Shown here piece after piece: positions 1 through 17,857 of a stretch of DNA of 39,407 nucleotides. The translations under genes and the position numbers were made by a program. A model generated the notes under the pieces. That model was not told the DNA's origin. It searched no databases and saw nothing but the letters and a program-made list of their open reading frames with translations. Location: assembly GCF_016903815.1 (NCBI RefSeq), contig NZ_CP069970.1. The stretch is one strand, 5' to 3'. Origin of the DNA: Escherichia coli (GTDB lineage: Bacteria > Pseudomonadota > Gammaproteobacteria > Enterobacterales > Enterobacteriaceae). The number at the start of each line of letters is the position of its first letter. Within the stretch, counting starts at the first letter, position 1.

Positions 1-1255
1 ATTCCGTTGATTTTACGGATTCACGAAAAAACTTTCTCAATTCATAATGGAATGAATCGCTGAAAGTATGGCTAAAACCTGATTCTTTTACTTCATCCAG
101 ATAATTTTTATCGACCTCGTAATTGTAACTTCTTTTGATAGAGGTATAGGTATCTGTTAATCGTTCAATCCCTGTTCTGAAGACGCTAATATTTTTATCG
201 TTAAGCGCATCGTAAGCCTCACCAAAGAAATCAAAAGTAATATCATCCAGATCCCTTTTGTTCTCAGGGCGCCCTGTTACAATACAACGACGCAATAACC
301 ACCGCCACAATCCTGAAACAGGCTTGACATTTCTCGATGACAATAAAGTCAGTTCACCAGAACGAACACCAAAGGAGGGCAGAATGATAATTTCCGCATC
401 CTGCCCATCTACCGCCTCTAGCCTTCTCAGTAGGAATAAAAAAGGCCTTATATAAATATCAGTAACAACATCACCTTTACTGATATTAGATTTAACATGA
501 AGCATATCGTCTTTCTCAGAAATTGAGTAAGGCAGTATTTTAATATTACCGAGGTAATTTTGACCTACATGACCCCCCGGGTAACGCAGCCACGCCTGAA
601 TATATGCTTTTTGAATGTAGTCATCCACTATCTGAGATAAAAAAAACTTATTCATTAGTCGATCGCGTTTGCTCTCATCCAGGACATTCAGACTGGAGAC
701 GAAGAACCAGATAGACAGAATAATATTGAAAAGCATCCACACAAAAGCTGTTACGGCAAAAGAAGTATTAAGATATCCGTCACCTATAGATAACGTCATA
801 CCGCCCAGCACGACAAATGCAGCCAGTGAAAGACCACTCAGGCCCGCAAACATATATCCGGAATGAAGTTGATACGCGGACTGAATATGGATCCTTGCTG
901 ATTTCTTTTGAAATAAAACACTTATAAGCCCCACAACCAGCGGAAATACAATACCGATTATAGTCAACTGGCTACCCAGTAAATTAGACATCCAATCTGA
1001 AAGCTTGGTAATGCCCTTAAAATGCTGCACAGCGAAAGGTAGCAATACAGGGCGAAAATATTCGACCACGCCAACAGCCCCGAAGGCTGCGGACCATAGA
1101 ACCAGCATAGCCCGGACGTAATGGGTGGAGCAGGAAACAAGTATTCTCTCCACCGGGTTCCAGCGAAGTTTTTTGTAATCCCGGTTCGACTTCAGGCTCC
1201 GTCGGAGTTCAGCTCTCACCTGCCATGAGACACTTTTCAGAAGTTTTCCAAACAT
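1..1255 (-). CDS. membrane protein, N-terminal part (gene runs off the window start)
   Basis: Hand translation of the minus strand: ATG at 1255-1253 (MFGKLLKSVSWQVRAELRR...), frame open to position 1 (at least 418 codons). Four hydrophobic helices in the first ~190 aa, then a soluble domain. AGGA lies 6 nt upstream of the ATG. Absent from the ORF track because no stop lies inside the window. Confidence 0.45.
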   Translation of the reverse strand, partial: MFGKLLKSVSWQVRAELRRSLKSNRDYKKLRWNPVERILVSCSTHYVRAMLVLWSAAFGAVGVVEYFRPVLLPFAVQHFKGITKLSDWMSNLLGSQLTIIGIVFPLVVGLISVLFQKKSARIHIQSAYQLHSGYMFAGLSGLSLAAFVVLGGMTLSIGDGYLNTSFAVTAFVWMLFNIILSIWFFVSSLNVLDESKRDRLMNKFFLSQIVDDYIQKAYIQAWLRYPGGHVGQNYLGNIKILPYSISEKDDMLHVKSNISKGDVVTDIYIRPFLFLLRRLEAVDGQDAEIIILPSFGVRSGELTLLSSRNVKPVSGLWRWLLRRCIVTGRPENKRDLDDITFDFFGEAYDALNDKNISVFRTGIERLTDTYTSIKRSYNYEVDKNYLDEVKESGFSHTFSDSFHYELRKFFRESVKSTE

Positions 1256-1414
1256 AGATATCCTGCGTATTACATAAGAAATTTTATGAATAATAAGCGG
1301 TAGGAACCTTTTTTTCTCTGGAAAATGTCACCCGATACCCTTCATACAGGCTTTGTCATCCTAAAATCCGGTTTAACCTTTTTTCGGATCTCCGATAAAA
1401 AAGAAAGAAATAGA

Positions 1415-1545
1415 GATATGCATAAACATATGCCTGGCATCTACATATGCTACCGCTATACATATGCCACACATCTGCCTATACTAAACATATGCACACA
1501 CCCGGTGCTTTGAATATTCCGGATATGTTTCACATATCCATATGC
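1415..1545. repeat. array of five ACATATGC-type direct repeats (CATATG cores near 1427, 1444, 1461, 1489, 1539) upstream of vapB
   Basis: Seen directly: the first three copies are spaced 17 bp apart, iteron-like. The array ends ~20 bp before the vapB start. Confidence 0.4.
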
Positions 1546-1561
1546 TCGGGAGAGAAAGAAC

Positions 1562-1792
1562 ATGAGAACCGTATCGATATTTAAAAATGGCAACAACCGC
1601 GCCATCCGTCTGCCTCGTGATCTGGATTTTGAGGGGGTGAGCGAGCTCGAGATCGTCCGGGAAGGGGACAGCATCATCCTGCGCCCCGTCCGGCCAACCT
1701 GGGGATCATTCCTAGAGTACGAAAAAGCCGATCCAGATTTTATGGCGGAGCGCGAGGATGTTGTCAGCGACGAAGGGCGATTTAACCTGTGA
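1562..1792 (+). CDS. vapB: VapB/VagC-family antitoxin (AbrB/SpoVT-type)
   Basis: 76-aa protein MRTVSIFKNGNNRAIRLPRDLDF..., closely resembling plasmid VagC antitoxin. Its stop overlaps the start of the next gene (GTGA). Confidence 0.85.
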   Translation: MRTVSIFKNGNNRAIRLPRDLDFEGVSELEIVREGDSIILRPVRPTWGSFLEYEKADPDFMAEREDVVSDEGRFNL

Positions 1793-2205
1793 ACAAGACT
1801 TATATGCTTGATACCTGTATCTGCTCGTTCATCATGCGTGAACAGCCAGAAGCCGTCCTGAAGCGTCTGGAGCAGGCGGTGCTACGCGGCCACCGTATAG
1901 TGGTCTCGGCCATCACCTACTCTGAAATGCGCTTCGGGGCTACCGGCCCAAAGGCCTCACCACGTCACGTCCAACTGGTCGATGAATTCTGCGCCCGCCT
2001 CGATGCCATCCTGCCCTGGGATCGCGCCGCAGTAGACGCCACCACGAAGATTAAAGTGGCACTGCGGCTGGCCGGGACGCCGATCGGCCCGAACGACACG
2101 GCGATTGCCGGGCACGCCATCGCCGCCGGGGCGATACTGGTAACGAATAATACAAGAGAATTTGAGCGAGTGCCTGACCTGGTGCTGGAAGACTGGGTGA
2201 AGTAA
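1789..2205 (+). CDS. vapC: VapC/VagD-family PIN-domain toxin
   Basis: PIN signature: N-terminal MLDTCIC (Asp), internal acidic residues, C-terminal TNNTREFERV. GTG start overlaps the vapB stop by 4 nt. Confidence 0.85.
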   Translation: MNKTYMLDTCICSFIMREQPEAVLKRLEQAVLRGHRIVVSAITYSEMRFGATGPKASPRHVQLVDEFCARLDAILPWDRAAVDATTKIKVALRLAGTPIGPNDTAIAGHAIAAGAILVTNNTREFERVPDLVLEDWVK

Positions 2206-2242
2206 GACACTCTTTTCAAAGTCAGGAGATAAGGGCACCAAG

Positions 2243-2267
2243 AAACAGCCCGTATACGGGCTGTTTT
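2243..2267. terminator. hairpin AAACAGCCCG-TATA-CGGGCTGTTTT between convergent vapC and ATPase genes
   Basis: Perfect 9-10 bp stem with A-run upstream and T-run downstream, placed between two convergent gene ends (2205 and 2367). Confidence 0.6.
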
Positions 2268-2366
2268 AACAGATATCTACAGTAAGCGGTCCTAAACTGT
2301 AGGGTATCTTCGAAGATCAGACTATCAGGGAGCTAAAGCCTATCTTCCGGCGGCAAAAACAGTGGC

Positions 2367-4505
2367 TCAAGCGATACGGGCAACCGAGCTCTGGTTTGCT
2401 GCCGGTGGCAGGGCGATGAGCTTGTCACATTCCATAATCACGTACTCCGGGATGAGATCGAATCTGGACGGATCTAGTTGACAGATGAACTCATTTTCAA
2501 TGTGGTACGTTTCGTTAACGAATTTTCGTATTACCGGATGGTCCTGATCCAGTTCCAGTAAACGGAATACCTGCAGTTTTTCATAGCCGTTACGACAGCG
2601 ACGGTACAGGTTTTTTATTTCATCTGGGCTGCTGACGAGAGCCTGAAGTCGCGGGTAATCAAAACTGTCCACATACTCCCGGATATCCCGCAAGGCCTGC
2701 TGAATTTTCTCAGGAGCCATTTTGGGATAGCCCGAGCCCGCAGCGGCAGGCTCGCGATAATCCAGCGGGGCGACGCGTCGATGGAATAGATTGGATAGAA
2801 GCTGATAAGCATCACCACGTTCGTCAACGATTTCAAAGTAGCGACGAAGATAGATGAGCTTAATGATCTCCTCACAGTCTGCTGACGCGGTGATGGATTT
2901 GCAGATCTGCATGAATGTCATGATATCGCCGTCGTTAACAGGTAATTCTTCTATGACTCCAGCAGACAGGCGCAGGCAGGAGGCGGTCACCTGATTACTG
3001 AACAACCTTCTGACTGACTTCAGCGTGTCAATCACAGGCTCCACGTCATGCGTCAGCATAAGTACAGTCCGGTTCTTCAGGCATTCACCACTTGCACGTC
3101 TGAACAGCATTTCAAGAATGGCAAACTTCTTGTTTTTATCAAAAGAAGATATGGGATCATCAAGGATAATCAGTCCCGGGTTTTTTGACAGGCATTCATA
3201 CATGAATAACACAATCGCAAAGGCGTTCCGTTCTCCATAGCTGAGATGCTGGCTACCGCCGCTGACGTACCCGTCAAAATCTATGTGTCGTAGCCTGAGT
3301 TTTCTCTGCTCTCCCTCGCCGGCTATATCCACCCTGTATTTATAGCCTGCATAAGTGAGGAAATTATTGATGTTTGTTTTGTGCTGTGCGATCAGCCGGA
3401 TCATGCTGTCCCGGTGCCGGTTAATTTTTCCCTGCAGCGGTCCGGCAAGGTTTATCAGGTCCATAAGGGCCGCGTTCAGTCTGTCGGTGATCCCCTGCAT
3501 GAGTTCGGATTGCAGATCAGGGAAGAACTGCAGGTCAATCAACCTGGCAGTGAGCACCTCCCGAACGTTCTGCTGTTCCTGCAGGCTGAAAACATTCAGG
3601 CCTCTCAGCGCAGTGAGTTTCTCTGTCAGCGTATCGGTCTGGCGTTTCAACGCCACTAGGTACTCGATATGTTCGGCTTCCGGACCGTTCTGAAGCATAG
3701 TAATGGCCAGAAGGCGTTCTCTGGCGCTCTCCGTCAGGTAATTACCGAGGTTTTCCACCAGTCTGATGATAGCGGTCAGGTTTTTAATGGTGGATTTATC
3801 GTATTCCTCTCTGACTTGGCGAATTTGTGCTTCCTTTCCCGTGATATCACCGGTACAGAACGGACAGCAGCCATCCGAAAGGGGCGAAAACTCGAGTCCC
3901 TTTGTCTGCCAGTCAATCCATTCCACGCGGCGTTCACTGCGGATGTAGGGTTGATAGTTCTCAAGACCAGCCGGAATGTGGTGTATTTTATTTCCGCCTG
4001 ACAGACCTCTCATGCCGGTTGAAGAACGTGAAATCCCGGAACTGGTTGATTTGAAAGCATTACTGAGTTCCTGTAGATGGTCTATCAGAGAGTTCAGCTC
4101 AGTGTGATCCGTGAAAACAGCCCGGATCTTTTGCGTCATTTCTTCTATTTCACGCTCTCTTTCCGCATGGGCTTGATTGCGGATAAGAATATTAAAGCTG
4201 TCACTGATGAGCTCGTCCGGTTGGAACGTAAACTGACTGACGTACTCCTCGTTGAAGCACATCACGTCCCCAATCCCGTCAGCACCGATGACAATGGGCC
4301 CGGTGCTATCGGGGTTTTCTCCGCGCAGCCGGAAGGGCATCAGTGCCTGTAGTCCCTGAATGTCGTCCCGCGCCGCACAGCTTATGGCCCGTGACAGCGT
4401 ACTTTTTCCAGTACCATTTGGCGCAAACTTAATGTTCAGTTTATCGGCAGTGAGGGTGATATGTGCTCGTACGATGTTATTGCAGTGGCGTATTTCAATG
4501 TCCAT
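2367..4505 (-). CDS. ABC-type ATPase with coiled-coil zinc hook (AAA_13 family; RloC/PrrC-like candidate)
   Basis: 712 aa. Walker A FAPNGTGKST (aa 27-36), CCPFC zinc-hook-like motif inside a long predicted coiled-coil insert, ABC signature-like LSYGERN, Walker B LIILDDP, H-loop LTHD. C-terminal region has R-x3-E (LRRYFE) followed by His (LFHRR), reminiscent of the PrrC/RloC anticodon-nuclease triad. Confidence 0.6.
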   Translation of the reverse strand: MDIEIRHCNNIVRAHITLTADKLNIKFAPNGTGKSTLSRAISCAARDDIQGLQALMPFRLRGENPDSTGPIVIGADGIGDVMCFNEEYVSQFTFQPDELISDSFNILIRNQAHAEREREIEEMTQKIRAVFTDHTELNSLIDHLQELSNAFKSTSSGISRSSTGMRGLSGGNKIHHIPAGLENYQPYIRSERRVEWIDWQTKGLEFSPLSDGCCPFCTGDITGKEAQIRQVREEYDKSTIKNLTAIIRLVENLGNYLTESARERLLAITMLQNGPEAEHIEYLVALKRQTDTLTEKLTALRGLNVFSLQEQQNVREVLTARLIDLQFFPDLQSELMQGITDRLNAALMDLINLAGPLQGKINRHRDSMIRLIAQHKTNINNFLTYAGYKYRVDIAGEGEQRKLRLRHIDFDGYVSGGSQHLSYGERNAFAIVLFMYECLSKNPGLIILDDPISSFDKNKKFAILEMLFRRASGECLKNRTVLMLTHDVEPVIDTLKSVRRLFSNQVTASCLRLSAGVIEELPVNDGDIMTFMQICKSITASADCEEIIKLIYLRRYFEIVDERGDAYQLLSNLFHRRVAPLDYREPAAAGSGYPKMAPEKIQQALRDIREYVDSFDYPRLQALVSSPDEIKNLYRRCRNGYEKLQVFRLLELDQDHPVIRKFVNETYHIENEFICQLDPSRFDLIPEYVIMECDKLIALPPAANQSSVARIA

Positions 4506-4653
4506 TTATCTGTCCTTTGCCAGTTATTCCGGGGGGATTCATATCCTGCCGCAAAATGTGCCCGCATGCTGTGATGCAGATACATAATACATTTCGTTTA
4601 TACCATTGCTTACACCTCTCCGAGATGTTCATATCAGAAACAAAGATTAGGTC

Positions 4654-4679
4654 GATCCGACTTTTACTTTTTTCGGATC
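4654..4679. promoter_or_regulatory. inverted repeat GATCCGA-N12-TCGGATC in the divergent ATPase/NTase intergenic region
   Basis: Seen directly. Its right arm and T-run (TTTTTTCGGATCTC, ~4668-4681) recur nearly identically at ~1379-1392 upstream of vapB. Confidence 0.3.
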
Positions 4680-4969
4680 TCTGGAGAGGGGAAGAAGGAT
4701 TTGTGCTGATGATGCAATACTAATGATATATTTTGAACTTAATTGCATTATTGCTTATCTGGCATTAATAACTGAAATACTTTGCATAATTATCAATGAA
4801 AGAACGAGGCTCATATTTCCCATGTAAATTATATGCCCTTGCAGAGAGCGAGACGGTAGTGAACTTGCGGCACTAATAATAAACTGTACCGACTCTTCCC
4901 GGGCACTGGAATGTTCAGATGTACGACAGAGCCCCGCGCCTTTTGCAATAAATAATTAAAGGACTGAAC

Positions 4970-5965
4970 ATGGCGACCACAGTAATAGCTGCCTTTAACG
5001 AATTTATGAAAGATACCGTGAATCTCAAAAAGGCAGATACCGATGACGCGCGTGCAAGTCGCGACTGGCTTATCGGTAAGATGAATGATTTTGAGAAGGA
5101 CGATAAATTTCCGGTGAGTTTTCCAGCGATCCATATTGCCTTTGGCTCCTTTGCCAGAAGAACCAAAATCCGTCCGCTTGATGATATCGATCTGATGTTT
5201 GGCTTAACCGGGCAAGGTGCCACCTATACCATCCTGAGTGACCGGATAACTGTAACCTCCTCCGGAGAGGGGTCACGTCTGCACAGTTACCGCCATTCCG
5301 GAGCTGACACCGTCTGCTCCGTCAGAATTCTGAATGCCTTTAAAAACCGCCTGCAGGACATTGCCCAGTACGCCCAGGCTGATATCAGGCGTAACCAGGA
5401 AGCTGTCACGCTGAAACTGGTCAGCAAGGACTGGAATTTTGACATCGTCCCCTGCTTTATTACCAGCGAAGATGCCTTTGGACGGACTTACTACCTGATC
5501 CCCGATGGCAACGGCCACTGGAAGTTTACCGACCCCCGTAAAGACAGGGACAGAGTCACTACTATCAATGTGCAGAATAACGGCAATGTGCTCAATGTCA
5601 TCAGAGCAGTCAAATACTGGCAGCGGCGACCGACGATGCCATCCATGAGTTCCTACCTGCTGGAAACGCTGATTCTGGACTATTACGCTGGCAGGACATC
5701 CTGCTCATCGTTTGTTGACATGGAGCTGGAAGCGCTTTTCCGCCACCTTGGTCAATCCGTGCGGTACTCTGTCAACGATCCCAAAGGCATACAGGGTGAT
5801 ATCAACTCACTTTCAGCCGAGGCACGTAAGGCGATATCGGACAGATGTTATCTCGATGCGCAAAAGGTATCGGAGGCGAGATGGTTTGAAAATAATAAAG
5901 AGTATGAAAAATCCATCAATAAATGGCGCGATGTGTTCGGGCCATTCTTTCCTGTTTACGGGTGA
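4970..5965 (+). CDS. Pol-beta superfamily nucleotidyltransferase, SMODS / cGAS-DncV-like (CD-NTase-like)
   Basis: 331 aa. Active-site pattern G59-S60, then D72-x-D74 (HIAFGSFARRTKIRPLDDIDLMF), third Asp D158 in NFDIVPCF. Good SD (AAAGGA) before the ATG. Confidence 0.65.
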   Translation: MATTVIAAFNEFMKDTVNLKKADTDDARASRDWLIGKMNDFEKDDKFPVSFPAIHIAFGSFARRTKIRPLDDIDLMFGLTGQGATYTILSDRITVTSSGEGSRLHSYRHSGADTVCSVRILNAFKNRLQDIAQYAQADIRRNQEAVTLKLVSKDWNFDIVPCFITSEDAFGRTYYLIPDGNGHWKFTDPRKDRDRVTTINVQNNGNVLNVIRAVKYWQRRPTMPSMSSYLLETLILDYYAGRTSCSSFVDMELEALFRHLGQSVRYSVNDPKGIQGDINSLSAEARKAISDRCYLDAQKVSEARWFENNKEYEKSINKWRDVFGPFFPVYG

Positions 5966-5968
5966 ATC

Positions 5969-6901
5969 ATGAATGCCATTTACACAAACCAGTCGACCAG
6001 AGAAAACATGGATTTACTGTATGCGCAGGCCCGTGTCTACGACAGGGTAAAAAACTGGAACAGACTGAATTTTCTCTTCAGCATCATCGTACCGCTCCTG
6101 CTTTCTTTCGTTACCGTATACAACCGGAGCCGGGAATTTGTCGATTCAGAGTTGTTGTCTTCGCTGTTGGGGTTATATGGACTCCTGGTGCTTACCTTTA
6201 ACATTGTTATCAGTGGACACATCTCGGCTCTGCGCAGGAAGGCAGCCTCAATCCAGGAAATGTACGACTGCCGGGTACTTGGCATCCGGCGTAATGAACT
6301 GAAGGTGGAGGAGATCCCACGGGATGACATCATCCGGGAAGCTGCATATTTTAGAGACAGCCCGGAAAAAGCACGAAAGCGATTTGGCGAAGAGGGGTGG
6401 TACGTCAGTAAGGTGTATGACGCGCCGCAGGCCGTAATGGCGCTCCTTTGCCACGGAAAAAATCTCGGCTGGGACAAATCGCTCAGGGAGGTTCTGCACG
6501 TATTTTATCTTTCCGCTTTTATTGTCTCGCCTGTCGCGATGCTTGTTTACGGCATCGTCATGAAATCCGGGCTGAATGAGATCCTCTTCTATGTGGTGTT
6601 CACACTGCCGGTCATCCGCTATTTCTTGCTTCAGTTTCTGGATAATCGCAGCAGTATGAAAAGAAGCGAGAAGCTGAAAAAGTACGTTGAGAAGGAATTA
6701 TCCGGCATAAGGGTGTCCGGAAGGGCAGAAGAAGAGCAACTGGCTTATACGCTCCGGAATATCCAAGATGAGATGTTTACCTACCGGGCCTCATGTCCGC
6801 CCGTACCCAACGGTATTCAGCTGATAATGAAGCCCAAAAATGAACGAATTTATGTTGATTACTTTGAAACAAATCTGAAGGAGCTGCACCTTCAGAAGTA
6901 A
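5969..6901 (+). CDS. 4-TM membrane protein, putative effector partner of the nucleotidyltransferase
   Basis: 310 aa. ATG is 3 nt after the NTase stop, with an SD inside the NTase 3' end. Hydrophobic helices at ~aa 33-51 and 62-86, two more at ~175-225, a ~90-aa cytoplasmic insert and an ~80-aa C-terminal tail. Confidence 0.55.
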   Translation: MNAIYTNQSTRENMDLLYAQARVYDRVKNWNRLNFLFSIIVPLLLSFVTVYNRSREFVDSELLSSLLGLYGLLVLTFNIVISGHISALRRKAASIQEMYDCRVLGIRRNELKVEEIPRDDIIREAAYFRDSPEKARKRFGEEGWYVSKVYDAPQAVMALLCHGKNLGWDKSLREVLHVFYLSAFIVSPVAMLVYGIVMKSGLNEILFYVVFTLPVIRYFLLQFLDNRSSMKRSEKLKKYVEKELSGIRVSGRAEEEQLAYTLRNIQDEMFTYRASCPPVPNGIQLIMKPKNERIYVDYFETNLKELHLQK

Positions 6902-7037
6902 TCCCTCCTTAGCTCCGGTGTAGGATTTACGTATGCCGGAGCACATCCGATAAACAATTCTTGGTTGCCTGAGTGTCAGCGTAAACCCATAGTCACCTTC
7001 GCCTCAGACGGTTAGTAACACAGGTAATGACTCCAAC

Positions 7038-7541
7038 TTACTGATAGTGTTTTATGTTCAGATAATGCCCGATGACTTTGTCATGCAGCTCCACCGATTT
7101 TGAGAACGACAGCGACTTCCGTCCCAGCCGTGCCAGGTGCTGCCTCAGATTCAGGTTATGCCGCTCAATTCGCTGAGTGTAACGCTTGCTGATTACGTGC
7201 AGCTTTCCTTTCAGGCGGGATTCATACAGCGGCCAGCCATCCGTCATCCATATCACCACGTCAAAGGGTGACAGCAGGCTCATAAGACGCCCCAGCGTCG
7301 CCATAGTGCGTTCACCGAATACGTGCGCAACAACCGTCTTCCGGAGCCTGTCATACGCGTAAAACAGCCAGCGCTGGCGCGATTTAGCCCCGACGTATCC
7401 CCACTGTTCGTCCATTTCCGCGCAGACGATGACGTCACTGCCCGGCTGTATGCGCGAGGTTACCGACTGCAGCCTGAGTTTTTTAAGTGACGTAAAATCG
7501 TGTTGAGGCCAACGCCCATAATGCGGGCTGTTGCCCGGCAT
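7038..7541 (-). CDS. insB: IS1 InsB reading frame (expressed as the InsAB' frameshift fusion)
   Basis: Protein matches the IS1 transposase InsB; overlaps insA as in canonical IS1. Confidence 0.9.
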
Positions 7542-7735
7542 CCAACGCCATTCATGGCCATATCAATGATTTTCTGGTGCGTACCGGGTTGAGAAGCGGT
7601 GTAAGTGAACTGCAGTTGCCATGTTTTACGGCAGTGAGAGCAGAGATAGCGCTGATGTCCGGCAGTGCTTTTGCCGTTACGCACCACCCCGTCAGTAGCT
7701 GAACAGGAGGGACAGCTGATAGAAACAGAAGCCAC
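7460..7735 (-). CDS. insA: IS1 InsA
   Basis: [30 protein letters not shown]... matches IS1 InsA; GTG start. Confidence 0.9.
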
Positions 7736-7948
7736 AGGAGCACCTCAAAAACACCATCATACACTAAATCAGTAAGTTGGCAGCATCACCGGCATTCAAA
7801 ATCATTATGACCGCGATCTATTTCTGGCTGTTCTCTATCACTTTTGGCGGCATCGTCGCTCATGGGTAAGGGGAGTATATTAGCCATTTGGAACCCCACG
7901 GTCTCTTGCGGGTTTAATTAAGAACCCGCAAGAAAAATACGAATTGGG

Positions 7949-10900
7949 CTATATTTTTCCGCCTACGCCTTTAAACTTCTCAATAAACGAGACGATTTTC
8001 TGGAAAACTGCCTGTTTTTTCGTTTTATATTGCGGATTCAACGGACTAAGTTTTGGTAATGTCTCGTTTAATTCTGTGCCATTTTCGGTGGCGTATTCGC
8101 GTTTTAAAGACGTGCGAATATAGCGTTTTGCTGCATCTTCATTGAGATTTTCTTCTTTAATCAATGCTTCTGCTTCACGTAGCTGTTCGCGTTGAGCAAA
8201 CGTAAAGAATGCCTCAATGATACTGGCTTTGTCTGGTAAATCATCCAGGTTCGTTTGCTGAATAAAATCGACCACCAGGCCCTCTTTCGCCCGGTTCCCC
8301 AGGCTTGAACGAATTAAGCGTTTGACCTCTTCGATCATTTCGCCCTTGCCTTTATTTTGTCTGTTATGTTCGAAAATCAGTCCAAGGATATAATCCAGGT
8401 TTATTTCCTGAGACTTCAGCAAATCGACCTCAAAAACCACGTCATCCCAGTCAGTGGTTGATTTCTCTTTTTTATCAGCTTCTTTCTCGCGGCGCTGCCA
8501 GTCGCGAATATCGTTATAGGCAGAACGATAATCCTGAATCTTGCGATCAGCAGGGAGACGAATCGTTTGCAATTCAGCGAACTTTTCATCATCCACATAA
8601 TGTTCTGCTTTGAATTTTTCTACCTGCAACAGGATCGCTAAGATCGATTTGTTGCAGGGCTTTCAGCGTGGCAAATTCATCATAGTTTTGCAGGATGTTC
8701 TCGGTACGCAGGTATTCACCAAACAGTTTAACGAAGTCTTTCTTCTCTTTTTCACTTTCAATACTGGCAGGGTCAGGGAACCGTTGTTCCAGTTCTGCAA
8801 CTACTGCCATAAAGCCGCGCTTAGCTTCACCAGTAGCAGCATCAGTAAAGCCTTCCATATACTCTGCATAACTCTTTTCTAAAACTACATTTTTGGTGTT
8901 TTTGTCACCAAACAGCGTTATGGCATCAATAGTTGAGCGTTCCAGATCCCGGAAAGTGACGATATTACCGAAGGTTTTAGTGGCATCATAAATACGGTTG
9001 GTGCGGGAAAATGCCTGCATCAGGCCGTGAAAACGAAGGTTTTTATCGACGAATAGCGTGTTCAATGTTGGAGCATCGAAGCCAGTTAAGAACATCCCCA
9101 CGACAATTAGCAGATCGATATCCTGATTTTTAACCCGCTGGGCTAAATCACGATAGTAGTTCTGAAAACCGTTACTGTCGGTGCTGAAGTTAGTTTTAAA
9201 ATAGCTGTTATACTCACGAATTGCAGCGTCCAGAAACTCTTTAGCACTGCTGTCCATTGCGCTGGTATCAAAAGTTTCATCGGAAATCTCACCAATGGCA
9301 TTTTGTTCTTCATTAGCGGCAAAGGAGAAGATTGTCGCAATACGCAGCGGTTTATAGGTAGCCGATTTATTAGCGGCTTCCTCTTGTAACCGTTTAAACG
9401 TCGCATAATAGGCTTTCGCAGCATCCACGCTGCTCACTGCCAACATAGCATTAAAGCCTTTTGAGCCTGGGAAGGTACGGTGAGTTTTCTGGCGGAAGTT
9501 ATTCAGAATATATTGCGTAATTTCCTGTATACGCATGGGATGAAGAAACGCCTGCTGATTTTCAGCCGCACTCAGTTTTTTCTCGTCAGTTTCTGTCTCT
9601 AAAGACTTAAACTGTGGCCGCACATCGTTGTAGTCCACCTTGAATTTAAGCACTTTTTCATCACGAATCGCATCGGTAATTACATACGAATGCAATTCAC
9701 GACCAAATACGCTGGCGGTCGTTTCTGAGCCTAAGGCGTTTTCCGGGAAAATAGGGGTACCGGTAAAACCAAACTGATAATAGCGTTTGAATTTCTTCTT
9801 CAGGTTTTTCTGTGCTTCTCCAAACTGGCTGCGGTGGCATTCATCAAATATAAACACCACTTGCTGATTATATACAGACAGGTCGCTTTCTGCTTTCATC
9901 AGGTTATTGAGTTTCTGAATAGTAGTGACGATAATTTTGTTATCGTCCTTATCCAGATTTCGTTTAAGACCTGCGGTATTTTCCGATCCATTGACACTGT
10001 CTGGCGAAAAACGCTGATATTCCTTCATGGTCTGGTAATCGAGGTCTTTCCTGTCGACCACGAAGAAGACTTTATCAATAAAGTCCAGTTCTGTTGCCAG
10101 ACGCGCGGCTTTAAAGCTGGTCAGGGTTTTACCAGAACCGGTAGTGTGCCAGATAAAGCCACCACTTTCGGGGTTAGACCAGTTTTTCGCTTTATAGGAG
10201 CTGTTGATTTTCCATAAGATACGTTCAGTGGCGGCAATCTGGTACGGTCGCATCACCAGTAGCGTCTGGACTACTGTCAAAAACGCTGTAGTTCACCAGA
10301 ACATTCAGCAGAGTATGTTTCTGGAAAAAGGTAGCGGTAAAGTCTTTGAGGTCTTTAATCAGCGTGTTGTCTGATTTCGCCCAATTCATGGTGAAGTCAA
10401 AACTGTTTTTATCGCGCTTTGTCGTGTTGGCAAAATAACGGGTATCGGTGCCGTTAGAAATGACAAACAGTTGCAGATACTTAAACAGGGAATTTTCGCT
10501 GTTAAAACTCTCTTTACTGTAACGATGTATCTGGTTGAAAGCCTCACGAATCGCCACCCCGCGTTTTTTTAGTTCGATTTGCACCAGCGGTAAACCATTA
10601 ACCAGGATCGTGACGTCATAACGGTTAGCATGAGAACCCGTCTGTTCAAACTGCTGGATAATCTGCACCTTATTGCGCATGAGATTCTTTTTATCTATCA
10701 AATAGATGTTCTCAAGTCGCCCGTCGTCAAAAATAAAGTCGCAGATATAGTCGATATGGATTTTACGGGTTTTATCCAGAATACCATCGCTGGGGTTGTC
10801 CAGATACTGCTCCGTGAAGCGCCGCCACTCGCTGTCATTAAACATCACACCATTGAGGCTCTGAAGCTGTTCCCGAACATTAGACAGCATTGCCGACTGT

Positions 10901-11067
10901 GATTTTACGGAAATAAATTCATAACCCTGATTCCGCAGGTCCTGAATCAGTTCACGTTCCAGGTCCGATTCGCTCTGGTAGCTGTCGCTTGTTTGCTCAG
11001 CTTTGATGTACTTATCAAGGACGATAAAGTTATTGGATTCAGCAATGGTGTGTGTTTGATGAGTCAT
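7949..11067 (-). pseudogene. hsdR: type I restriction enzyme R subunit, split into three frames by two +1 frameshifts
   Basis: Three consecutive minus-strand ORFs in three frames (10225-11067, 8589-10280, 7949-8629) that together read as one ~1040-aa HsdR (N-terminal nuclease region, RPYQ-type helicase start, C-terminal domain). Frame changes coincide with A5/T5 runs at 10279-10283 and 8615-8619; removing one base at each restores a continuous frame. Confidence 0.7.
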
Positions 11068-11188
11068 AGCGCATCCTTTGTGCCGCCTGGCAAGAGCCGG
11101 AAGGGCGTTAAGAGTGACTTCCGGCGCGTAAAAAATAGTCTATATACTGACCGGATGTTAAGGTGAGCCGGTCTGTAGCAATGGTCAA

Positions 11189-12441
<1,253 letters not shown>

Positions 12442-12445
<4 letters not shown>

Positions 12446-14004
12446 TTCTGCACCTCGCAGCCTTCAATTTCAGCCACAATCGCATCAATATCTTTGCGCA
12501 ACTGGTCGATTTTGCTGACCGTGGTTTTCAGCTCAGCATTCAGCTCAGCGATATCGATAATTTCGCGAGTATCTTTCGCTTCCACATAGCTGCTCACCGA
12601 CAGGTTATAGTCATTCGCGACAACAGTCTCAAACGCAACAGATTTCGCCAGATGAGCAACATCTTCCTTGCTGGCAAATACCTGCATAATTTTTTCGATA
12701 TGGGCATCGGTCAGGATGTTGTTGTTAGTCTCTTTTTTGAACAGTTCGCTGGCGTCAATAAACTGAACTTTGGTATCCGTTTTATGTTTAGACAGAACCA
12801 GAATGTTTACGGCAATGGTGGTGCCAAAGAACAGGTTCGGAGCCAGTGAAATCACGGTTTCGACATAGTTATTATCGACCAGATACTGACGGATTTTCTG
12901 CTCCGCGCCGCCACGGTAAAAAATGCCTGGGAAGCAGACAATCGCAGCGCGACCTTTGGCCGAAAGATAGTTCAGCGCATGTAATACAAACGCAAAGTCA
13001 GCTTTGGATTTGGGGGCCAGAACGCCAGCCGGGGCAAAACGTTCATCGTTAATCAGCGTCGGGTCATCGCTGCCAATCCATTTCACCGAATACGGCGGGT
13101 TAGAAACGATGGCATCAAACGGTTTTTCATCTCTGAAGTGCGGCTCAGTCAGTGTATTACCCAGCTTGATATCAAACTTGTCGTAGTTGATGTTGTGCAA
13201 AAACATGTTCATACGCGCCAGGTTATAGGTCGTATGGTTGATTTCCTGACCAAAAAAACCTTCTTCGATGATATGGTCATCAAACTGTTTTTTAGCCTGC
13301 AACAACAGCGAACCGGAGCCTGCTGCCGGGTCGTAGATTTTGTTAACGTGGGTCTGCCCGTGCATAGCCAGTTGTGCAATCAGCTTAGAGACGTGCTGCG
13401 GTGTAAAGAACTCGCCGCCTGACTTACCGGCATTCGCCGCATAGTTAGAAATCAGGAACTCATAGGCGTCACCGAACAGGTCAATCTGATGTTCGTGGAA
13501 GTCACCAAGTTTTAACCCTTCAACCCCTTTCAGAACCGCAGCCAGGCGGGCATTTTTATCCTTAACGGTATTCCCCAGGCGGTTACTGGTTGTATCGAAA
13601 TCAGCAAACAAACCTTTGATGTCAGCTTCTGAAGGATAACCGTAAGCAGAACTTTCGATAGCAACGAAGATGCTGTTTAAATCCGCATTCAGTCTGTCAT
13701 TGGTATTTGCTTTCGCCGCTACGTTGCAGAAAAGCTGACTGGGGTAGATGAAGTAACCTTTGGTTTTGATGGCATCGTCTTTAATGTCATCAGTAATTAC
13801 GCTGTCATCCAGTTTCGCATAACAGATACTGTCATCACCGGCTTCAATATAGCTGGAAAAATTTTCGCTGATAAAACGGTAAAAAAGCGCGCCCAAAACG
13901 TACTGCTTAAAATCCCATCCATCGACTGAACCCCTGACATCGTTAGCAATTTGCCAGATCTGGCGATGAAGCTCTGCACGTTGTTGAATACTTGTCATTT
14001 TCAT
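12442..14004 (-). CDS. hsdM: type I restriction-modification N6-adenine DNA methyltransferase subunit
   Basis: 520 aa with SAM-binding motif [10 protein letters not shown] and catalytic NPPYS; N-terminus [25 protein letters not shown] is typical of HsdM. Confidence 0.9.
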
Positions 14005-14143
14005 CCACTTATTTCAGGTTTAAGTAATTGGATGTGATTCTACAGCAACTTGGATGCTTTAGCAGTTCGGACATTAGGCTACGAATGACCTGCCTAGAGG
14101 TTTGTTAAGCCGCAAAGTGCTGGTGCTTTATGCCTGTGAAGTT

Positions 14144-14171
14144 TATAATTGTGTACACATAACGAGTACAC
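14144..14171 (+). promoter_or_regulatory. phd-doc promoter -10 (TATAAT) with palindromic operator-like sites TGTGTACACA and GAGTACAC
   Basis: TATAAT at ~14144-14149 followed by a perfect 10-bp palindrome and a related half-site immediately upstream of the phd ATG. Phd/Doc autoregulation through palindromic operators is established. Confidence 0.5.
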
Positions 14172-14180
14172 GAGGTATTT

Positions 14181-14402
14181 ATGCAATCCATTAACTTCCG
14201 TACCGCGCGCGGCAACCTTTCTGAAGTGCTCAACAATGTTGAGGCCGGGGAAGAGGTTGAAATCACCCGCAGAGGCCGTGAGCCAGCAGTAATTGTCAGC
14301 AAGGCTACTTTCGAAGCCTACAAAAAAGCGGCGCTGGATGCTGAATTTGCATCCCTGTTTGACACCCTGGACTCCACCAACAAGGAACTGGTTAACCGAT
14401 AA
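14181..14402 (+). CDS. phd: Phd antitoxin (prevent host death)
   Basis: 73 aa, [39 protein letters not shown]..., recognised as P1 Phd; TAATG overlap with doc. Confidence 0.95.
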
Positions 14403-14782
14403 TGAGGCATATATCACCGGAAGAACTTATTGCGCTTCATGATGCGAATATAAGCCGCTACGGCGGCCTGCCGGGAATGTCAGATCCGGGTAGGGCAGAG
14501 GCCATTATCGGGAGAGTTCAGGCCAGAGTTGCCTACGAAGAGATCACCGACCTTTTCGAAGTCTCCGCCACCTACCTGGTGGCTACAGCGAGAGGGCATA
14601 TATTCAATGATGCCAATAAGCGTACCGCGCTAAACAGTGCGCTGCTATTTCTACGCCGTAACGGGGTGCAGGTATTTGATTCACCAGAACTGGCAGACCT
14701 TACCGTAGGGGCTGCGACCGGAGAGATATCTGTATCTTCTGTCGCCGACACGTTACGTAGATTGTATGGTTCCGCGGAGTAG
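14402..14782 (+). CDS. doc: Doc toxin (Fic-fold kinase, death on curing)
   Basis: 126 aa, [25 protein letters not shown]..., recognised as P1 Doc. Confidence 0.95.
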
Positions 14783-14966
14783 ATTAATGGCACGTAAATA
14801 CAACAAATTGTCCCGTGAAGCGTTAAAGATGCTTCTTGATGGCGTGAGTCGCCGCGAGGTAAAGCAATACCTGGTTGGTAAGCAAATTGGTGCTAGGACC
14901 GCTATTGCTGTGTTATGCCGTCAGGAAATGGTTGTGCTTAAACAGAGAATGCCGGGCAGCAGATAA
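14766..14966 (+). CDS. pdcA: post-doc protein A
   Basis: Small ORF directly after doc, as in P1; the real start may be the internal ATG at ~14787 (MARKYNK..., preceded by GGAG). Confidence 0.55.
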
Positions 14967-14993
14967 AGCCCAATCAGTGATGAAAGGTGTGAT

Positions 14994-16037
14994 GTGAAAG
15001 CCGTAATTACTCCCTTTGTACAAAAAGAGCTTGGCGTCGCCACATTCAAAGTGGATCAGGAAGTCAGAAAGCTGGTGGAGGCTGGCCGTAAATTTATTAT
15101 GGAGCCGGTGCCGCGTGAGTTAATCGAGCACATGGACGACGGCCTCGTTGTTTCCGAGCAAACTATGGCAACAAATGAGGCGTTGCAGCCGTTTTTTAAC
15201 AGCGATGAACTGTTTCGCCGTATTGGTGGAATTGACGCGCTGGTGGCGTGGTTGCGCAGGAAAGAGGGGCAATGCCAGGCCGCAGATCGTAGCTGGTGTG
15301 ACAACCATATTGTCCACGCAGAACGAGACAATAGCGCGGTGTTGTTGTGCTGGCATCACGATAACCATTACCGGATGCGTGGTTTTAATGAGCTGAAAGA
15401 AACGCTGCATAATAATCGCGTTAACTGGATACTGGATGTCGCCCGTCAGGAAATGGGGCTTTCAGATGGCCATGTTCTAAGTATTCAGGAACTGTGCTGG
15501 TGGGCTTTCATGCGCAACATGATGCACCTGATGCCTGAAGAAGTTTGCCGTATATCAATAAATAAGATGAAAGCCGCAACGCAGGATAGCGGACCTCTGA
15601 AAGAGGCGGATATTCGCCCGTATGACGATCGCGCTACAGCATATGTTCAGATGATGGAAGAACGCGCCGCGCCGATGCGTGCAAAAGTATGCCCTGTGGA
15701 TGTTGACTCCGACCCTGGCATGGCGCATTTCAAAATACCAAAACTGCAATCGCTAAAATTACCTGAGTACATGGACTTTGTTGCTTCCCGTCCATGCTGT
15801 GGGTGTGGAGCGGCGGGAGCTGGCGCTCACATTACGCCTTATATCGTTCGTCATAGTCGATTATGCGCGCATGACATTTACGCAATTCCTCTGTGCCAGT
15901 CATGCCAGCGTGATATTGAGCGTGACCGCGATAATTGGGAGAAGACGCACGGCAGGCTGGCGATGCATCAACGATTGTTCTTTGATTACGCGCTTGGAGT
16001 CGGCGCTATCACAAGTCACTCGTCGAGCGTTAGATAA
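14994..16037 (+). CDS. pdcB: post-doc protein B
   Basis: 347-aa ORF in the P1 pdcB position between doc/pdcA and lpa; GTG start; Cys/His-rich C-terminal part. Confidence 0.65.
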
Positions 16038-16038
16038 A

Positions 16039-16055
16039 ATTGCTCTAATGTATTG
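16039..16055 (+). promoter_or_regulatory. C1 operator-like site ATTGCTCTAATGTATTG upstream of lpa
   Basis: Matches the P1 C1 operator 17-mer consensus at ~14/17 positions, 2 nt after the pdcB stop and ~70 bp before lpa. Confidence 0.6.
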
Positions 16056-16125
16056 CTATTTCTTTAATCGATGGTATTATATTCGTCGTTGATTAGTTGA
16101 CATGGGCTAATCAGTAGGTGACAGG

Positions 16126-16578
16126 ATGTTACTTAACTGGCAGGGACGCCACTTCATGGAAATAAATCACTCACGAATTACATCGTATGAGATTGCGGAT
16201 TACATGATTCGCACTAAATCTCTTCTATCAGCGAAAGAACTCGCAGCAATCCTTGAAAAGGAATACCCGCATCTGGATGTCGATAAGCGCGATGTTTATC
16301 TGCGCTTAAAGGCTATCGCTGTGTCTAAGTATTCGTCTGTTTTGATTGATGACAGTACACGCCCACGTAGATTTCAGATCCACTCTCTGAATCCTGAATT
16401 CTTTCGCCGTAGCCGCGCTCCGCGCCGGTTTGATGAAAAACTCCAGAACGAACTCTATATGACGCAGGACGAAAAGGAACGCCGGGAGCACCAGCCTTGG
16501 GTAATGGCGCGTCAACTTTTCAATAAGGTGGCCCGTCAGCACCGTCATTACGGTAATGCCACATCCGCACGTATCTGA
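16126..16578 (+). CDS. lpa: late promoter activator Lpa
   Basis: 150-aa ORF immediately upstream of pacA, preceded by a C1 operator-like site; position and size fit P1 lpa (gene 10). Confidence 0.75.
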   Translation: MLLNWQGRHFMEINHSRITSYEIADYMIRTKSLLSAKELAAILEKEYPHLDVDKRDVYLRLKAIAVSKYSSVLIDDSTRPRRFQIHSLNPEFFRRSRAPRRFDEKLQNELYMTQDEKERREHQPWVMARQLFNKVARQHRHYGNATSARI

Positions 16579-16663
16579 TTGATTGCTTGCCCGTTCCGGG
16601 CCTTTTGACATGTGACTTTCGTTACCCTCGCGTCAAAAAGAGTTTTTACGAAAGGAAGCATAA

Positions 16664-17857
16664 GTGACCTGGGACGATCACAAGAAGAATTTTGCTCGCC
16701 TGGCGCGAGATGGTGGTTACACCATCGCACAGTATGCCGCCGAGTTTAATCTTAACCCTAATACTGCACGTCGTTATCTCCGTGCCTTCAAAGAAGACAC
16801 CAGGACAGCGGACAGCCGCAAGCCAAATAAACCAGTCAGGAAGCCACTAAAAAGCATGATCATTGATCACTCTAATGATCAACATGCAGGTGATCACATT
16901 GCGGATGAAATAGCGGAAAAACAAAGGGTTAATGCCGTTATCAGTGCCGCAGTCGAGAATGCGAAGCGCCAAAATAAGCGTATAAATGATCGTTCTGATG
17001 ATCATGACGTGATCACCCGCGCCCACCGGACCTTACGTGATCGCCTGGAACGCGACACCCTGGATGATGATGGTGAACGCTTTGAATTCGAAGCTGGCGA
17101 TTACCTGATAGATAACGTTGAAGCGCGGAAGGCCGCTCGCGCTATGTTGCGTCGGTCCGGGGCCGATGTTCTGGAAACCACTCTTCTGGAAAAGTCTCTT
17201 TCTCATCTCCTTATGCTGGAGAACGCCAGGGATACGTGTATTCGTCTGGTGCAGGAAATGCGCGATCAGCAAAAAGACGATGATGAAGGGACTCCGCCTG
17301 AATATCGTATCGCGAGCATGCTAAACAGCTGTTCCGCGCAGATAAGCAGCCTGATCAACACCATTTACAGCATCCGGAATAACTATCGAAAAGAAAGCCG
17401 GGAGGCGGAAAAGCACGCTTTATCTATGGGGCAAGCTGGCATTGTTAAGCTGGCATACGAACGAAAGCGTGAAAATAACTGGTCAGTGCTGGAAGCAGCT
17501 GAATTCATCGAGGCGCATGGCGGAAAAGTGCCGCCCCTGATGCTGGAGCAAATCAAAGCCGATCTGCGTGCTCCTAAGACCAATACCGATGATGAGGAAA
17601 GGCAAACAGCCGTCGGTGGCCCTTCTCTTGAAGATCTGGACAAAGTTGCGCGAGAACGGGCCGCCAACCGCCGCGCCGATGCCGCATTGTGGATTGAGCA
17701 GCGTAGGGAAGAAATCGCCGATATCGTTGATACAGGCGGTTATGGAGATGTTGATACTGAAGGTGTATCAAACGACCCATGGCTGGAACAAGACCTGGAC
17801 GAAGACGAGGAGGAAGACGAAGAAGTTACCCGCAAGCTATACGGGGATGATGATTAA
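16664..17857 (+). CDS. pacA: terminase/pacase small subunit PacA
   Basis: 397 aa, GTG start after AAAGGAAG; contains the pac hexamer clusters in its 5' part; TAATG overlap with pacB. Confidence 0.9.
16857..17016. other. pac packaging site: four TGATCA(N) elements (16857-16897), then three (16987-17016)
   Basis: Seen directly: TGATCAT, TGATCAC, TGATCAA, TGATCAC, then ~90 bp, then TGATCG, TGATCA, TGATCAC. Each has a GATC Dam site. This is the established P1 pac architecture inside pacA. Confidence 0.75.

Follow-up and report, generated by a model that had tools for sequence, protein, structure and literature searches.

An IS1 junction between IncF-type and P1-derived DNA, and a blended hsdR allele, in an Escherichia coli contig

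An insertion sequence that has no target-site duplication raises the question of how it came to lie where it does. We asked this of an IS1 copy in Escherichia coli contig NZ_CP069970.1, which stands between a set of plasmid defence genes and a type I restriction-modification (hsd) locus, and we asked further whether it marks the point at which one replicon gives way to another. The stretch of DNA analyzed, hereafter the window, is 39,407 nucleotides long. Our preferred reading, to which we give a probability of about 0.8, has two layers that belong together: ordinary IS1-junction biology and an assembly artefact in hsdR. A missing target-site duplication is usually put down to recombination between IS copies or to adjacent deletion (PMC11708052). 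That IS1 copies of this kind mark cointegration or deletion junctions is textbook knowledge.

The IS1 copy and its two flanks

The left part of the window and the IS1 copy itself contain the following features.

1562 to 2205, plus strand: toxin-antitoxin pair vapB (1562-1792) and vapC (1789-2205), with Pfam matches MazE_antitoxin and PIN; vapB/VapC are annotated in pIP1206
2367 to 4505, minus strand: AAA_13 ATPase (Pfam AAA_13), defence candidate PDC-S06 (PADLOC PDC-S06, E = 3e-286)
4970 to 6901, plus strand: two-gene type I CBASS, made up of an SMODS cyclase (4970-5965) and an S-4TM effector (5969-6901)
7016 to 7022: seven bases, TAACACA, between the end of the homology to CBASS relatives (...GGTTAG, 7015) and the IS1 end
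7023 to 7790, minus strand: complete IS1 (IS1A-like), 768 bp, with the IRR end at 7023 and the IRL end at 7790, without a target-site duplication
7460 to 7735 and 7038 to 7541, minus strand: insA and insB', with the A6C frameshift site at about 7478-7484

We assigned the element to the IS1 family based on its length of about 768 bp, terminal inverted repeats of about 23 bp (GGTGATGCTGCCAACTTACTGAT / GGTAATGACTCCAACTTA..) with both ends present, and insA and insB' frames that match Pfam Zn_ribbon_InsA, HTH_Tnp_IS1, and DDE_Tnp_IS1. The ends are canonical, with GGTAATGACTCCAACTTA at 7023 and TAAGTTGGCAGCATCACC finishing at 7790, and the A6C motif (AAAAAAC) for the programmed -1 frameshift lies at position 307 of the element. 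It is 98.2 to 98.4% identical to the IS1 of phage P1, and 100% identical to the copies at the same junction in pIP1206 and two further records.

Simple IS1 insertion leaves a duplication of 9 bp, occasionally 8 to 10 bp, and we found none at 7023-7790. The original prediction, that the 9 bp at the two ends differ and that no duplication is present, held on re-examination of the ends and flanks. The 9-mers beside the element are AGTAACACA on the left (7014-7022) and GGCATTCAA on the right (7791-7799), and they match at 3 of 9 positions. For every k from 5 to 14 we compared the k bases that end the left flank with the k bases that open the right flank; no direct repeat across IS1 emerged, and the best score was 6 of 14 matches. 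Neither 9-mer, nor the reverse complement of either, occurs again within the window. This is the only IS1 copy in the window, with no second copy bracketing a mobilised segment as in a composite IS1 transposon; in pIP1206, the P1-derived block ends without IS1, and an IS5 lies about 0.9 kb further on.

The left 7 kb consists of IncF-plasmid DNA that shows two mismatches to pIP1206, and the window stays IncF-type as far as 7790. Its type I CBASS was assigned based on Pfam SMODS and S_4TM and on PADLOC matches to a cyclase (E = 4e-152) and a 4TM effector (E = 1e-165). Homology to a class of CBASS relatives that have no IS1 stops at window position 7015. These relatives read ...GGTTAG followed by CATCCAG, three of them having CATCC(A/G)GCTTT where the window has TAACACA and IS1. 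The natural continuation of the left flank is ...GGTTAG followed by CATCCAGCTTT, and the window reaches IS1 as ...GGTTAGTAACACA. Because TAACACA lies between the break in CBASS homology and IS1, one more event, or several, must have taken place on the left. The left-flank allele including TAACACA is present in 494 records, and a 24-mer from the left flank had no match in the GTDB representative genomes.

On the right, IS1 is followed by a short ORF remnant, hsdR, and these features.

7791 to 7869, plus strand: remnant of a short hydrophobic P1-like ORF (Orf75 of phi456), the left end of the P1-derived block
11189 to 14004, minus strand: hsdS (11189-12445) and hsdM (12442-14004), identified by Pfam, of P1-like allele type throughout
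14181 to 15271, plus strand: phd (14181-14402), doc (14402-14782), pdcA (14787-14966), and the 5' part of pdcB, with coordinates carried over from pMB9880_2

Homology to P1-like elements (vB_EcoM-673R5, phi456, pMB9880_2, and p1002-1) starts exactly at 7790/7791, in the small ORF that lies downstream from pap. In P1-like phage-plasmids the sequence is pap...ATGAACAC followed by GGCATTCAA, so that IS1 cost the ORF its first 8 nt (ATGAACAC). Four P1-like records read ...AGGAGCTGAAGATATGAACAC followed by GGCATTCAAAATC at this ORF. The natural leftward continuation of the right flank is the P1 pap region, ...GAAGATATGAACAC followed by GGCATTCAA. The two flanks have unrelated origins, which bears out the view that this copy did not arrive by simple transposition into the site. 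It had also been proposed that IS1 joins the defence island to the 3' end of hsdR; the joining stands, but IS1 does not touch hsdR, whose stop codon (7949-7951) is 158 bp to the right.

In IncF plasmids, the P1-derived block is 7.5 kb long and comprises hsdRSM, phd, doc, pdcA, and a truncated pdcB. These plasmids leave the block within pdcB, a P1 backbone gene, at position 15271, and the P1 backbone of the window runs on. Both ends of the block cut through P1 backbone genes, the small ORF at one and pdcB at the other, which gives the transfer a direction: out of a P1-like element and into IncF. This both confirms and corrects the earlier idea that the left 7 kb came from another replicon: that DNA is of IncF type, but the captured DNA is the P1-derived block on the right.

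The junction across plasmids and IS1 activity

The region with the type I CBASS-IS1-hsdR junction is present in at least 274 PLSDB plasmids at about 99% identity, the matches listed being of IncF type. Judged by these comparisons, the join of CBASS-TAACACA, IS1, and GGCATTCAA-hsdR is a genuine, old, and conserved junction of IncF-type plasmids. The join had been taken for an event in this molecule, but so many plasmids already have it that it was not made here. We found no published description of this specific IncF junction in the literature.

Its composition, with an IncF CBASS module on the left and a block starting inside a P1 ORF on the right, is that of a cointegrate or IS-IS junction. 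The left junction of IS1 is unchanged in 10 different contexts, and the right junctions vary, leading into hsdR-distal DNA, two points in hsdM, or unrelated DNA. The two endpoints in IncF-type hsdM represent independent rightward deletions 40 bp apart (pIP1206 locus 16587 and 16627). One fixed IS end with varying endpoints on the other side is the pattern of IS1-adjacent deletion, and the same IS1 has stayed active in other contigs and plasmids, making adjacent deletions rightward.

IS1 classically forms cointegrates and adjacent deletions. The present copy resembles such cases in its intact IS, absent duplication, unrelated flanks, single fixed end, and nested deletions. It differs from them in that PLSDB yielded neither the reciprocal junction nor the primary cointegrate, and in the TAACACA beside the IRR end, which one event does not explain.

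We suggest that an IS1 adjoining the plasmid CBASS module mediated an event that involved a P1-like phage-plasmid, most likely replicative transposition, giving a cointegrate at the target GGCATTCAA in the small P1 ORF; IS1-IS1 recombination is an alternative that would give the same product. Later deletions would then have cut the phage part down to the 7.5-kb block (hsdR, hsdS, hsdM, phd, doc, pdcA, and truncated pdcB). A junction formed in this way has a donor flank on one side and a target flank on the other, hence no target-site duplication.

We searched PLSDB with a composite short-junction query, and a local control confirmed that the design would detect each target. There was no PLSDB match to the empty site (a 43-mer across the joined flanks), to the reciprocal IS1 flank (IS1 with AGTAACACA, in both orientations), or to a P1-like element in which IS1 lies beside a duplicated GGCATTCAA (P1, GGCATTCAA, and IS1, likewise in both orientations). 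Such reciprocal products may have been lost. The matching reciprocal IS1 flanks that the original prediction had proposed to look for are thus missing from PLSDB, and since these are the predicted products, the exact IS1 pathway that we infer is unproven. We also looked for what would speak against the non-simple origin, an 8- or 9-bp repeat at the ends or IS1-free relatives in PLSDB with both flanks contiguous. Neither was found; each flank, in its IS1-free relatives, runs into unrelated DNA. No P1-like record in PLSDB or the complete E. coli genomes has an IS1 at this site.

P1-like phage-plasmids and plasmids are already known to exchange restriction-modification and toxin-antitoxin modules; such exchange is frequent and is enriched in restriction-modification systems and transposases (Pfeifer & Rocha 2024, PMC10879196). 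The block studied here is similar in its restriction-modification genes and phd/doc, its adjoining transposase, and its 96 to 98% identity between P1-like and IncF versions. It goes beyond that likeness in that the direction of transfer can be read from the sequence.

A random mixture of two alleles in hsdR

The coding sequence of hsdR and its surroundings contain the following features.

7949 to 11067, minus strand: hsdR (EcoR124-type), interrupted by two +1 insertions that leave three ORFs (226, 563, and 280 aa)
7810 to 10423: blended zone with 95 sites at which IncF and P1 differ, 47 of them IncF, 47 P1, and 1 neither
8624 to 8625: frameshifting insertion with both alleles in tandem; window CTAC[CT]GCAAC, IncF CTAC[T]GCAAC, P1 CTAC[C]GCAAC
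10269 to 10270: frameshifting insertion with both alleles in tandem; window TCTG[GA]CTAC, IncF TCTG[G]CTAC, P1 TCTG[A]CTAC

The IncF and P1 alleles of hsdR are 96.4% identical, and the gene is intact (1038 aa) in both parental types, as seen in pIP1206 and pMB9880_2. Across the blended zone the window switches allele at 48 of 94 opportunities, where random shuffles give 48.5 ± 4.8; no run of one allele exceeds 5 sites, and switches occur within 6 to 9 bp, an example being the series 8159 (IncF), 8165 (P1), 8181 (IncF), and 8190 (P1). The hsdR of phi456, a natural recombinant, falls instead into blocks: it switches 22 times, and its longest run is 23. All three window-private changes fall on polymorphic sites. 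Beyond 10423, the P1 allele is present at 30 of 30 differing sites. With Klebsiella phage p4727 as the outgroup, 66 sites could be polarised: the window is ancestral at 35 and derived at 31 of them. Based on those 31 derived states, we rejected the window allele as an ancestor common to the IncF and P1 alleles.

From about 10.5 kb onward the window is identical to a P1-like phage-plasmid. It has no mismatch to pMB9880_2 after 10423, and its last 25 kb (14408-39407) are 100.0% identical to several plasmids. Elsewhere the window is clean, so the anomalies are confined to a repeat shared by two replicons. A consensus of mixed haplotypes over a collapsed repeat is a general assembly artefact, and the hsdR zone resembles it in having a random allele in each column, insertions of both alleles in tandem, errors at heterozygous columns, and a restriction to the shared repeat within an otherwise perfect sequence. 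The probably collapsed repeat contains the change from IncF to P1, so the replicon switch is not at IS1, where the original prediction had placed the boundary, but inside hsdR (7810-10423).

The IncF segment (1-7790) and the complete P1-like backbone (about 10.5-39.4 kb) would then be connected only through hsdR. The sequence at 7810-10423 would be a consensus taken column by column from the reads of two co-resident copies, one of the IncF and one of the P1 allele, and would correspond to no real molecule. The contig would be either a chimeric mis-join of two replicons or a cointegrate made by homologous recombination, in which the hsdR copies were blended in polishing. From its pattern, we infer that the blend arose in assembly or polishing. 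One observation counts against this explanation: the second segment common to IncF and P1, over which pIP1206 homology spans 12384-15271, is purely P1-type and unblended, so the assembler must have kept those two copies separate.

Searches for a second copy agreed in finding none. Among 1,324 full-length hsdR records from 5,426 complete E. coli genomes, the closest match was 98.2% identical. A blend-specific 41-mer was absent from IMG/VR and the JGI metagenomes, and exact look-up of the three hsdR fragment proteins found none among 15 billion proteins. No record in PLSDB or the complete E. coli genomes has the architecture of IncF left part, IS1, hsd, and P1 backbone, and window positions 6000-17500 were covered to at most 84% in the complete E. 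coli genomes.

Competing explanations and practical consequences

A close comparison for the whole contig is p1002-1 (NZ_CP021203.1), in which a P1-like genome, 100.0% identical to window 14408-39407, is united with an IncF conjugative backbone. It differs in having IS26 copies and resistance genes between the two parts, suggesting an IS26-mediated join, and in its pure P1-type hsdR with pap alongside. We rejected it as source or precedent for the window, given the IS26 between its IncF and P1 parts and no CBASS-IS1 junction at the hsd locus. It does bear on the idea that IS1 is itself the replicon boundary, at which a P1-like phage-plasmid gained the left 7-kb defence island. That idea can point to p1002-1 as a suggested IncF::P1 cointegrate formed by an IS element, to the missing duplication, to the position of IS1 between IncF-type and P1-homologous DNA, and to gene swapping between P1-like elements and plasmids via IS elements (PMC10879196). 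It nevertheless predicts pure P1-type hsdR from 7791, and as far as 10423 the diagnostic sites are IncF in half of the cases. Hundreds of plasmids, of IncF type in the matches listed, have the IS1-hsdR junction with the IncF-type hsdR allele, and the lack of any P1-like record with IS1 at the site weighs in the same direction, making this idea very improbable. That a simple insertion lost its 9-bp duplication to later point mutations has a negligible chance: old insertions may lose their repeats (a possibility listed in PMC11708052), but here 3 of 9 positions match beside an intact IS1, the IS1-free relatives of each flank run into unrelated sequence, PLSDB has no empty site, and the separate origins of the two flanks refute it.

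The remaining alternatives concern hsdR. Its mosaic could be a genuine allele, either hyper-recombinant through heteroduplex repair or an ancestral intermediate; natural alleles of the family are mosaic, as in phi456, and a three-way comparison alone cannot tell a blend from an internal-node sequence. The derived states argue against an ancestral sequence, however, and the switch count equals the random expectation with switches as close as 6 bp, whereas E. coli mismatch repair works in long patches. The frameshifts place two alleles in tandem, which is not a recombination product, and the allele is absent from the complete E. coli genomes, IMG/VR, the JGI metagenomes, and the 15 billion proteins; we regard a genuine allele as extremely improbable. 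Possible, though doubtful, and a sub-case of the preferred reading, is a real cointegrate or hybrid formed by RecA-dependent recombination between the hsd blocks, in which only the base sequence of hsdR was corrupted. The two replicons have about 3.5 kb and about 2.9 kb in common at 96 to 98% identity, an ample substrate, and IncF::P1 cointegrates such as p1002-1 exist. The 47:47 allele ratio fits 1:1 copies on one molecule, but F and P1 are low-copy replicons, and two separate ones would give 1:1 too. The architecture is absent from complete E. coli genomes and PLSDB plasmids, and the one known cointegrate examined was apparently joined at IS26 and not at hsd.

The practical value of the preferred reading, a conserved IS1 junction together with an artefact in hsdR, is one of quality control. 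It would be a mistake to read the window as a phage-plasmid with a CBASS/PDC-S06/vapBC defence island or to take the "pseudogenised" hsdR as real, and claims that rest on linkage across 7.8-10.5 kb call for read-level support. A by-product is the recognition of IncF-type plasmids (at least 274 PLSDB records) in which an active IS1 borders a 7.5-kb block of P1-derived homology. This block is a plausible substrate both for real recombination between IncF and P1 and for assembly mis-joins in co-resident replicons. A real IncF/P1-like hybrid replicon, fused by homologous recombination through the IS1-delivered, P1-derived hsd block, is rather unlikely. If it were true, common resistance plasmids would have a phage-derived "landing pad" for recurrent fusion of plasmids with phage-plasmids, and the fused element could be packaged or conjugated whole, with its CBASS, PDC-S06, and vapBC cargo.

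Four rows of the genome comparison start at the IS1 coordinate. We inspected one of them, pF829-1, and set it aside as a P1-like derivative into whose match a distant IS1 had been chained. As a separate observation, the assembly of strain 405 contains both an IncF plasmid and a P1-like one.

IS1 and its unmatched flanks

We examined the IS1 copy that lies between the left segment of the window, with its vapBC genes and two-gene CBASS module (SMODS cyclase and S-4TM effector), and the hsd locus. The element is complete; its insA and insB' products matched Zn_ribbon_InsA, HTH_Tnp_IS1, and DDE_Tnp_IS1, and it contains the A6C frameshift motif.

7023-7790, IS1, complete, 768 bp; IRR end starts GGTAATGACTCCAACTTA, IRL end finishes TAAGTTGGCAGCATCACC
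7460-7735, minus strand, insA
7038-7541, minus strand, insB'

The adjoining 9-mers, AGTAACACA on the left and GGCATTCAA on the right, match at 3 of 9 positions, and comparison of the flanks over 5 to 14 bp revealed no direct repeat at the IS1 ends, confirming the absence of a target-site duplication and the 9-mers named in the original prediction. IS1 neighbors hsdR, as also proposed, but does not abut its 3' end, since 158 bp separate the element from the hsdR stop at 7949. The element instead interrupts a short hydrophobic ORF, whose version in P1-like phages begins ATGAACAC followed by GGCATTCAA and whose first 8 nucleotides are lost in the window. This strongly hydrophobic ORF sits between pap and hsdR in P1-like phage-plasmids (window 7791-7869; 13746-13905 in L005, a P1-like locus), follows a Shine-Dalgarno sequence, and has the sequence MNTAFKIIMTAIYFWLFSITFGGIVAHG; the phi456 annotation lists it as the 44-aa Orf75; in the IncF-type plasmids examined, IS1 decapitates it.

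Missing target-site duplications are usually explained by recombination between IS copies or by adjacent deletion (PMC11708052). Based on sequence comparison, uninterrupted configurations of the left and right flanks both exist and are unrelated to each other. On the left, IS1-free CBASS relatives on E. coli, Salmonella, and Klebsiella plasmids (pEC316_3, pZ1323HSL0067-2, and pC3001-4-KPC) align to window position 7015 (…GGTTAG) and then read CATCC(A/G)GCTTT…. The 7 bp between this homology break and the IS1 end (TAACACA, 7016-7022) imply at least one further rearrangement to the left of IS1, preceding or accompanying the arrival of the element. On the right, homology to the P1-like phage-plasmids vB_EcoM-673R5, phi456, pMB9880_2, and p1002-1 begins exactly at 7790/7791; to the left of the equivalent point, these have pmgS and pap, without IS1. 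The view that IS1 did not arrive by simple insertion and joins DNA of different origin thus holds. The searches suggested for other IS1 flanks and an IS1-free configuration succeeded for the uninterrupted form of each flank, but a composite junction query of PLSDB, of a design shown to work by a local control, found no empty site, no reciprocal IS1 flanks, and no P1-like element with IS1 and a GGCATTCAA duplication.

Between vapBC and CBASS, a 712-aa AAA_13 ATPase (2367-4505) is a near-full-length match to PDC-S06, a PADLOC candidate defense family (E = 3e-286). Some IncFIA contexts (loci L007, L010, L013, and L015) instead have ccdAB and a Phage_integrase-family gene beside CBASS.

Origin and later history of the junction

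The order CBASS cyclase, S-4TM effector, IS1, hsdR also occurs outside the window: at least 274 PLSDB plasmids span 5000-10000 in one piece, and the best 30 of these are 99.1% identical to it and IncF-type where checked. One plasmid with the junction, pIP1206, carries an IS1 there that is 100% identical to the window copy, and it differs from window 1-7790 at 2 positions. IncF plasmids share this P1-derived block only as far as 15271, within the P1 backbone gene pdcB.

7791-15271, P1-derived block in IncF plasmids: small ORF remnant, hsdR, hsdS, hsdM, phd, doc, pdcA, truncated pdcB

Because both ends of the block cut inside P1 genes, it can be read as having left a P1-like element and entered IncF plasmids. 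The original proposal that a phage-plasmid gained the left island via IS1 is unsupported; the junction is an inherited IncF structure, and the captured DNA is the right side. The IS1 next to the CBASS module may have inserted by replicative transposition at GGCATTCAA in a P1-like phage-plasmid of the same cell, or it may have recombined with an IS1 already in such an element. Either route would produce a cointegrate junction that pairs a donor flank with a target flank and therefore shows no duplication, and the remaining phage DNA would have been lost through later deletions. P1-like phage-plasmids are documented to exchange restriction-modification and toxin-antitoxin modules with plasmids, together with transposases (PMC10879196).

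The left junction, GTTAGTAACACA followed by IS1, is constant in each of 10 distinct genomic settings that encode the exact S-4TM protein, while the right junction varies among GGCATTCAA on the hsdR side, two points in hsdM, and unrelated DNA. This combination is characteristic of IS1-adjacent deletions that start at the IRL end while the element itself stays in place. The hsdM endpoints lie in IncF-type hsdM (pIP1206 locus 16587 and 16627, 40 bp apart, 100% identity) and belong to L007 and L015 (contigs DASANK010000006.1 and CP069488.1), right of IS1 at locus position 7823. These are two independent deletions with the same left junction, each of about 4.8 kb, with loss of hsdR, hsdS, and the hsdM 3' end and retention of phd/doc.

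A blended hsdR at the apparent join between replicons

The transition from IncF to P1 sequence in the window is not at IS1 but within hsdR. The 25 kb at 14408-39407 match P1-like plasmids about 96-97 kb long at 100.0% identity, and vB_EcoM-673R5 at 99.9%. Two accessory genes of this P1-like backbone, one between ref/mat and darB and one between prt and pro, have the following coordinates, mapped from pMB9880_2.

26181-27308, RelA/SpoT-domain gene
36661-37791, TnpB-family RNA-guided endonuclease gene

Between 7810 and 10423, the IncF (pIP1206-like) and P1 (pMB9880_2-like) hsdR alleles differ at 95 sites (3.6%). Of these, 47 show the IncF base in the window, 47 the P1 base, and 1 neither. The allele switches in 48 of 94 adjacent pairs, compared to 48.5 ± 4.8 in random shuffles, with a longest run of 5 and switches within 6-9 bp (8159 IncF, 8165 P1, 8181 IncF, 8190 P1). 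Beyond 10423, the window agrees with the P1 allele at each of the 30 sites that distinguish the two (p about 1e-9 if mixing were 50:50). The blended zone is where the two replicons are most alike, bounded by IS1 on one side and by the more divergent hsdR 5' part and hsdS on the other. Only 3 differences are private to the window, all at sites where the alleles differ. Two 1-bp insertions, each consisting of both alleles side by side, split hsdR into three ORFs (226, 563, and 280 aa).

Insertion 1, window CTAC[CT]GCAAC: IncF T, P1 C
Insertion 2, window TCTG[GA]CTAC: IncF G, P1 A

Tandem-allele insertions of this kind are what a column-wise consensus of mixed reads yields, whereas recombination or mismatch repair does not yield them. 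The idea that the window allele is the common ancestor of both alleles was rejected: with the 82% identical homologue of Klebsiella phage p4727 as outgroup, 35 polarizable sites show the ancestral base in the window and 31 the derived one. Searches for a second copy of the blended allele were negative: among 1,324 full-length hsdR records from 5,426 complete E. coli genomes, the closest full-length match reaches 98.2% identity; a 41-mer diagnostic of the blend is absent from IMG/VR and JGI metagenomes; and a collection of 15 billion proteins contains none of the fragment proteins.

Most probably, the source cell contained both a P1-like phage-plasmid and an IncF plasmid bearing the P1-derived hsd block, and the hsdR repeat was collapsed or cross-polished, such that the contig crosses there from IncF into P1 sequence. 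With lower probability, the two replicons may also have been physically fused through the common hsd block, as a homologous-recombination cointegrate with two hybrid copies. The 1:1 allele ratio is compatible with two low-copy replicons or with one molecule. Real recombination between the two allele pools is shown by the hsdR of phi456 (OR339795.1), a natural recombinant, but this is a coarse block mosaic (22 switches, longest run 23 sites), whereas the window switches at the random-shuffle rate. An IncF::P1 cointegrate is on record: the 183.5-kb p1002-1 (NZ_CP021203.1) combines an IncF conjugative backbone with a complete P1-like genome that matches window 14408-39407 at 100.0% identity, with IS26 copies and the resistance genes blaCTX-M-15 and aac(3)-IIe between the parts. 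Its hsd region is of pure P1 configuration. The joined architecture was found neither in PLSDB plasmids (best coverage 94%, in pieces) nor among 5,426 complete E. coli genomes (best coverage 84%). If true, fusion via the hsd block would make it a recurrent landing pad for plasmid/phage-plasmid fusion. The apparent plasmid/phage-plasmid join in the window lies in consensus-blended hsdR, and the result is mainly cautionary, in that neither a "defense island on a phage-plasmid" nor an "hsdR pseudogene" should be trusted at face value; the behavior of IS1, the trading of DNA by P1-like elements with plasmids, and artifacts of repeat collapse are all already known.

Compared with P1-like plasmids that are otherwise identical, the hsdR/hsdM region of vB_EcoM-673R5 (ON470615.2) has several single-base deletions (window-equivalent positions 8055, 8300, 8468, 8671-8672, and 10959), which split its hsdR into the annotated "HsdR1/HsdR2." These look more like sequencing indel errors than biology.
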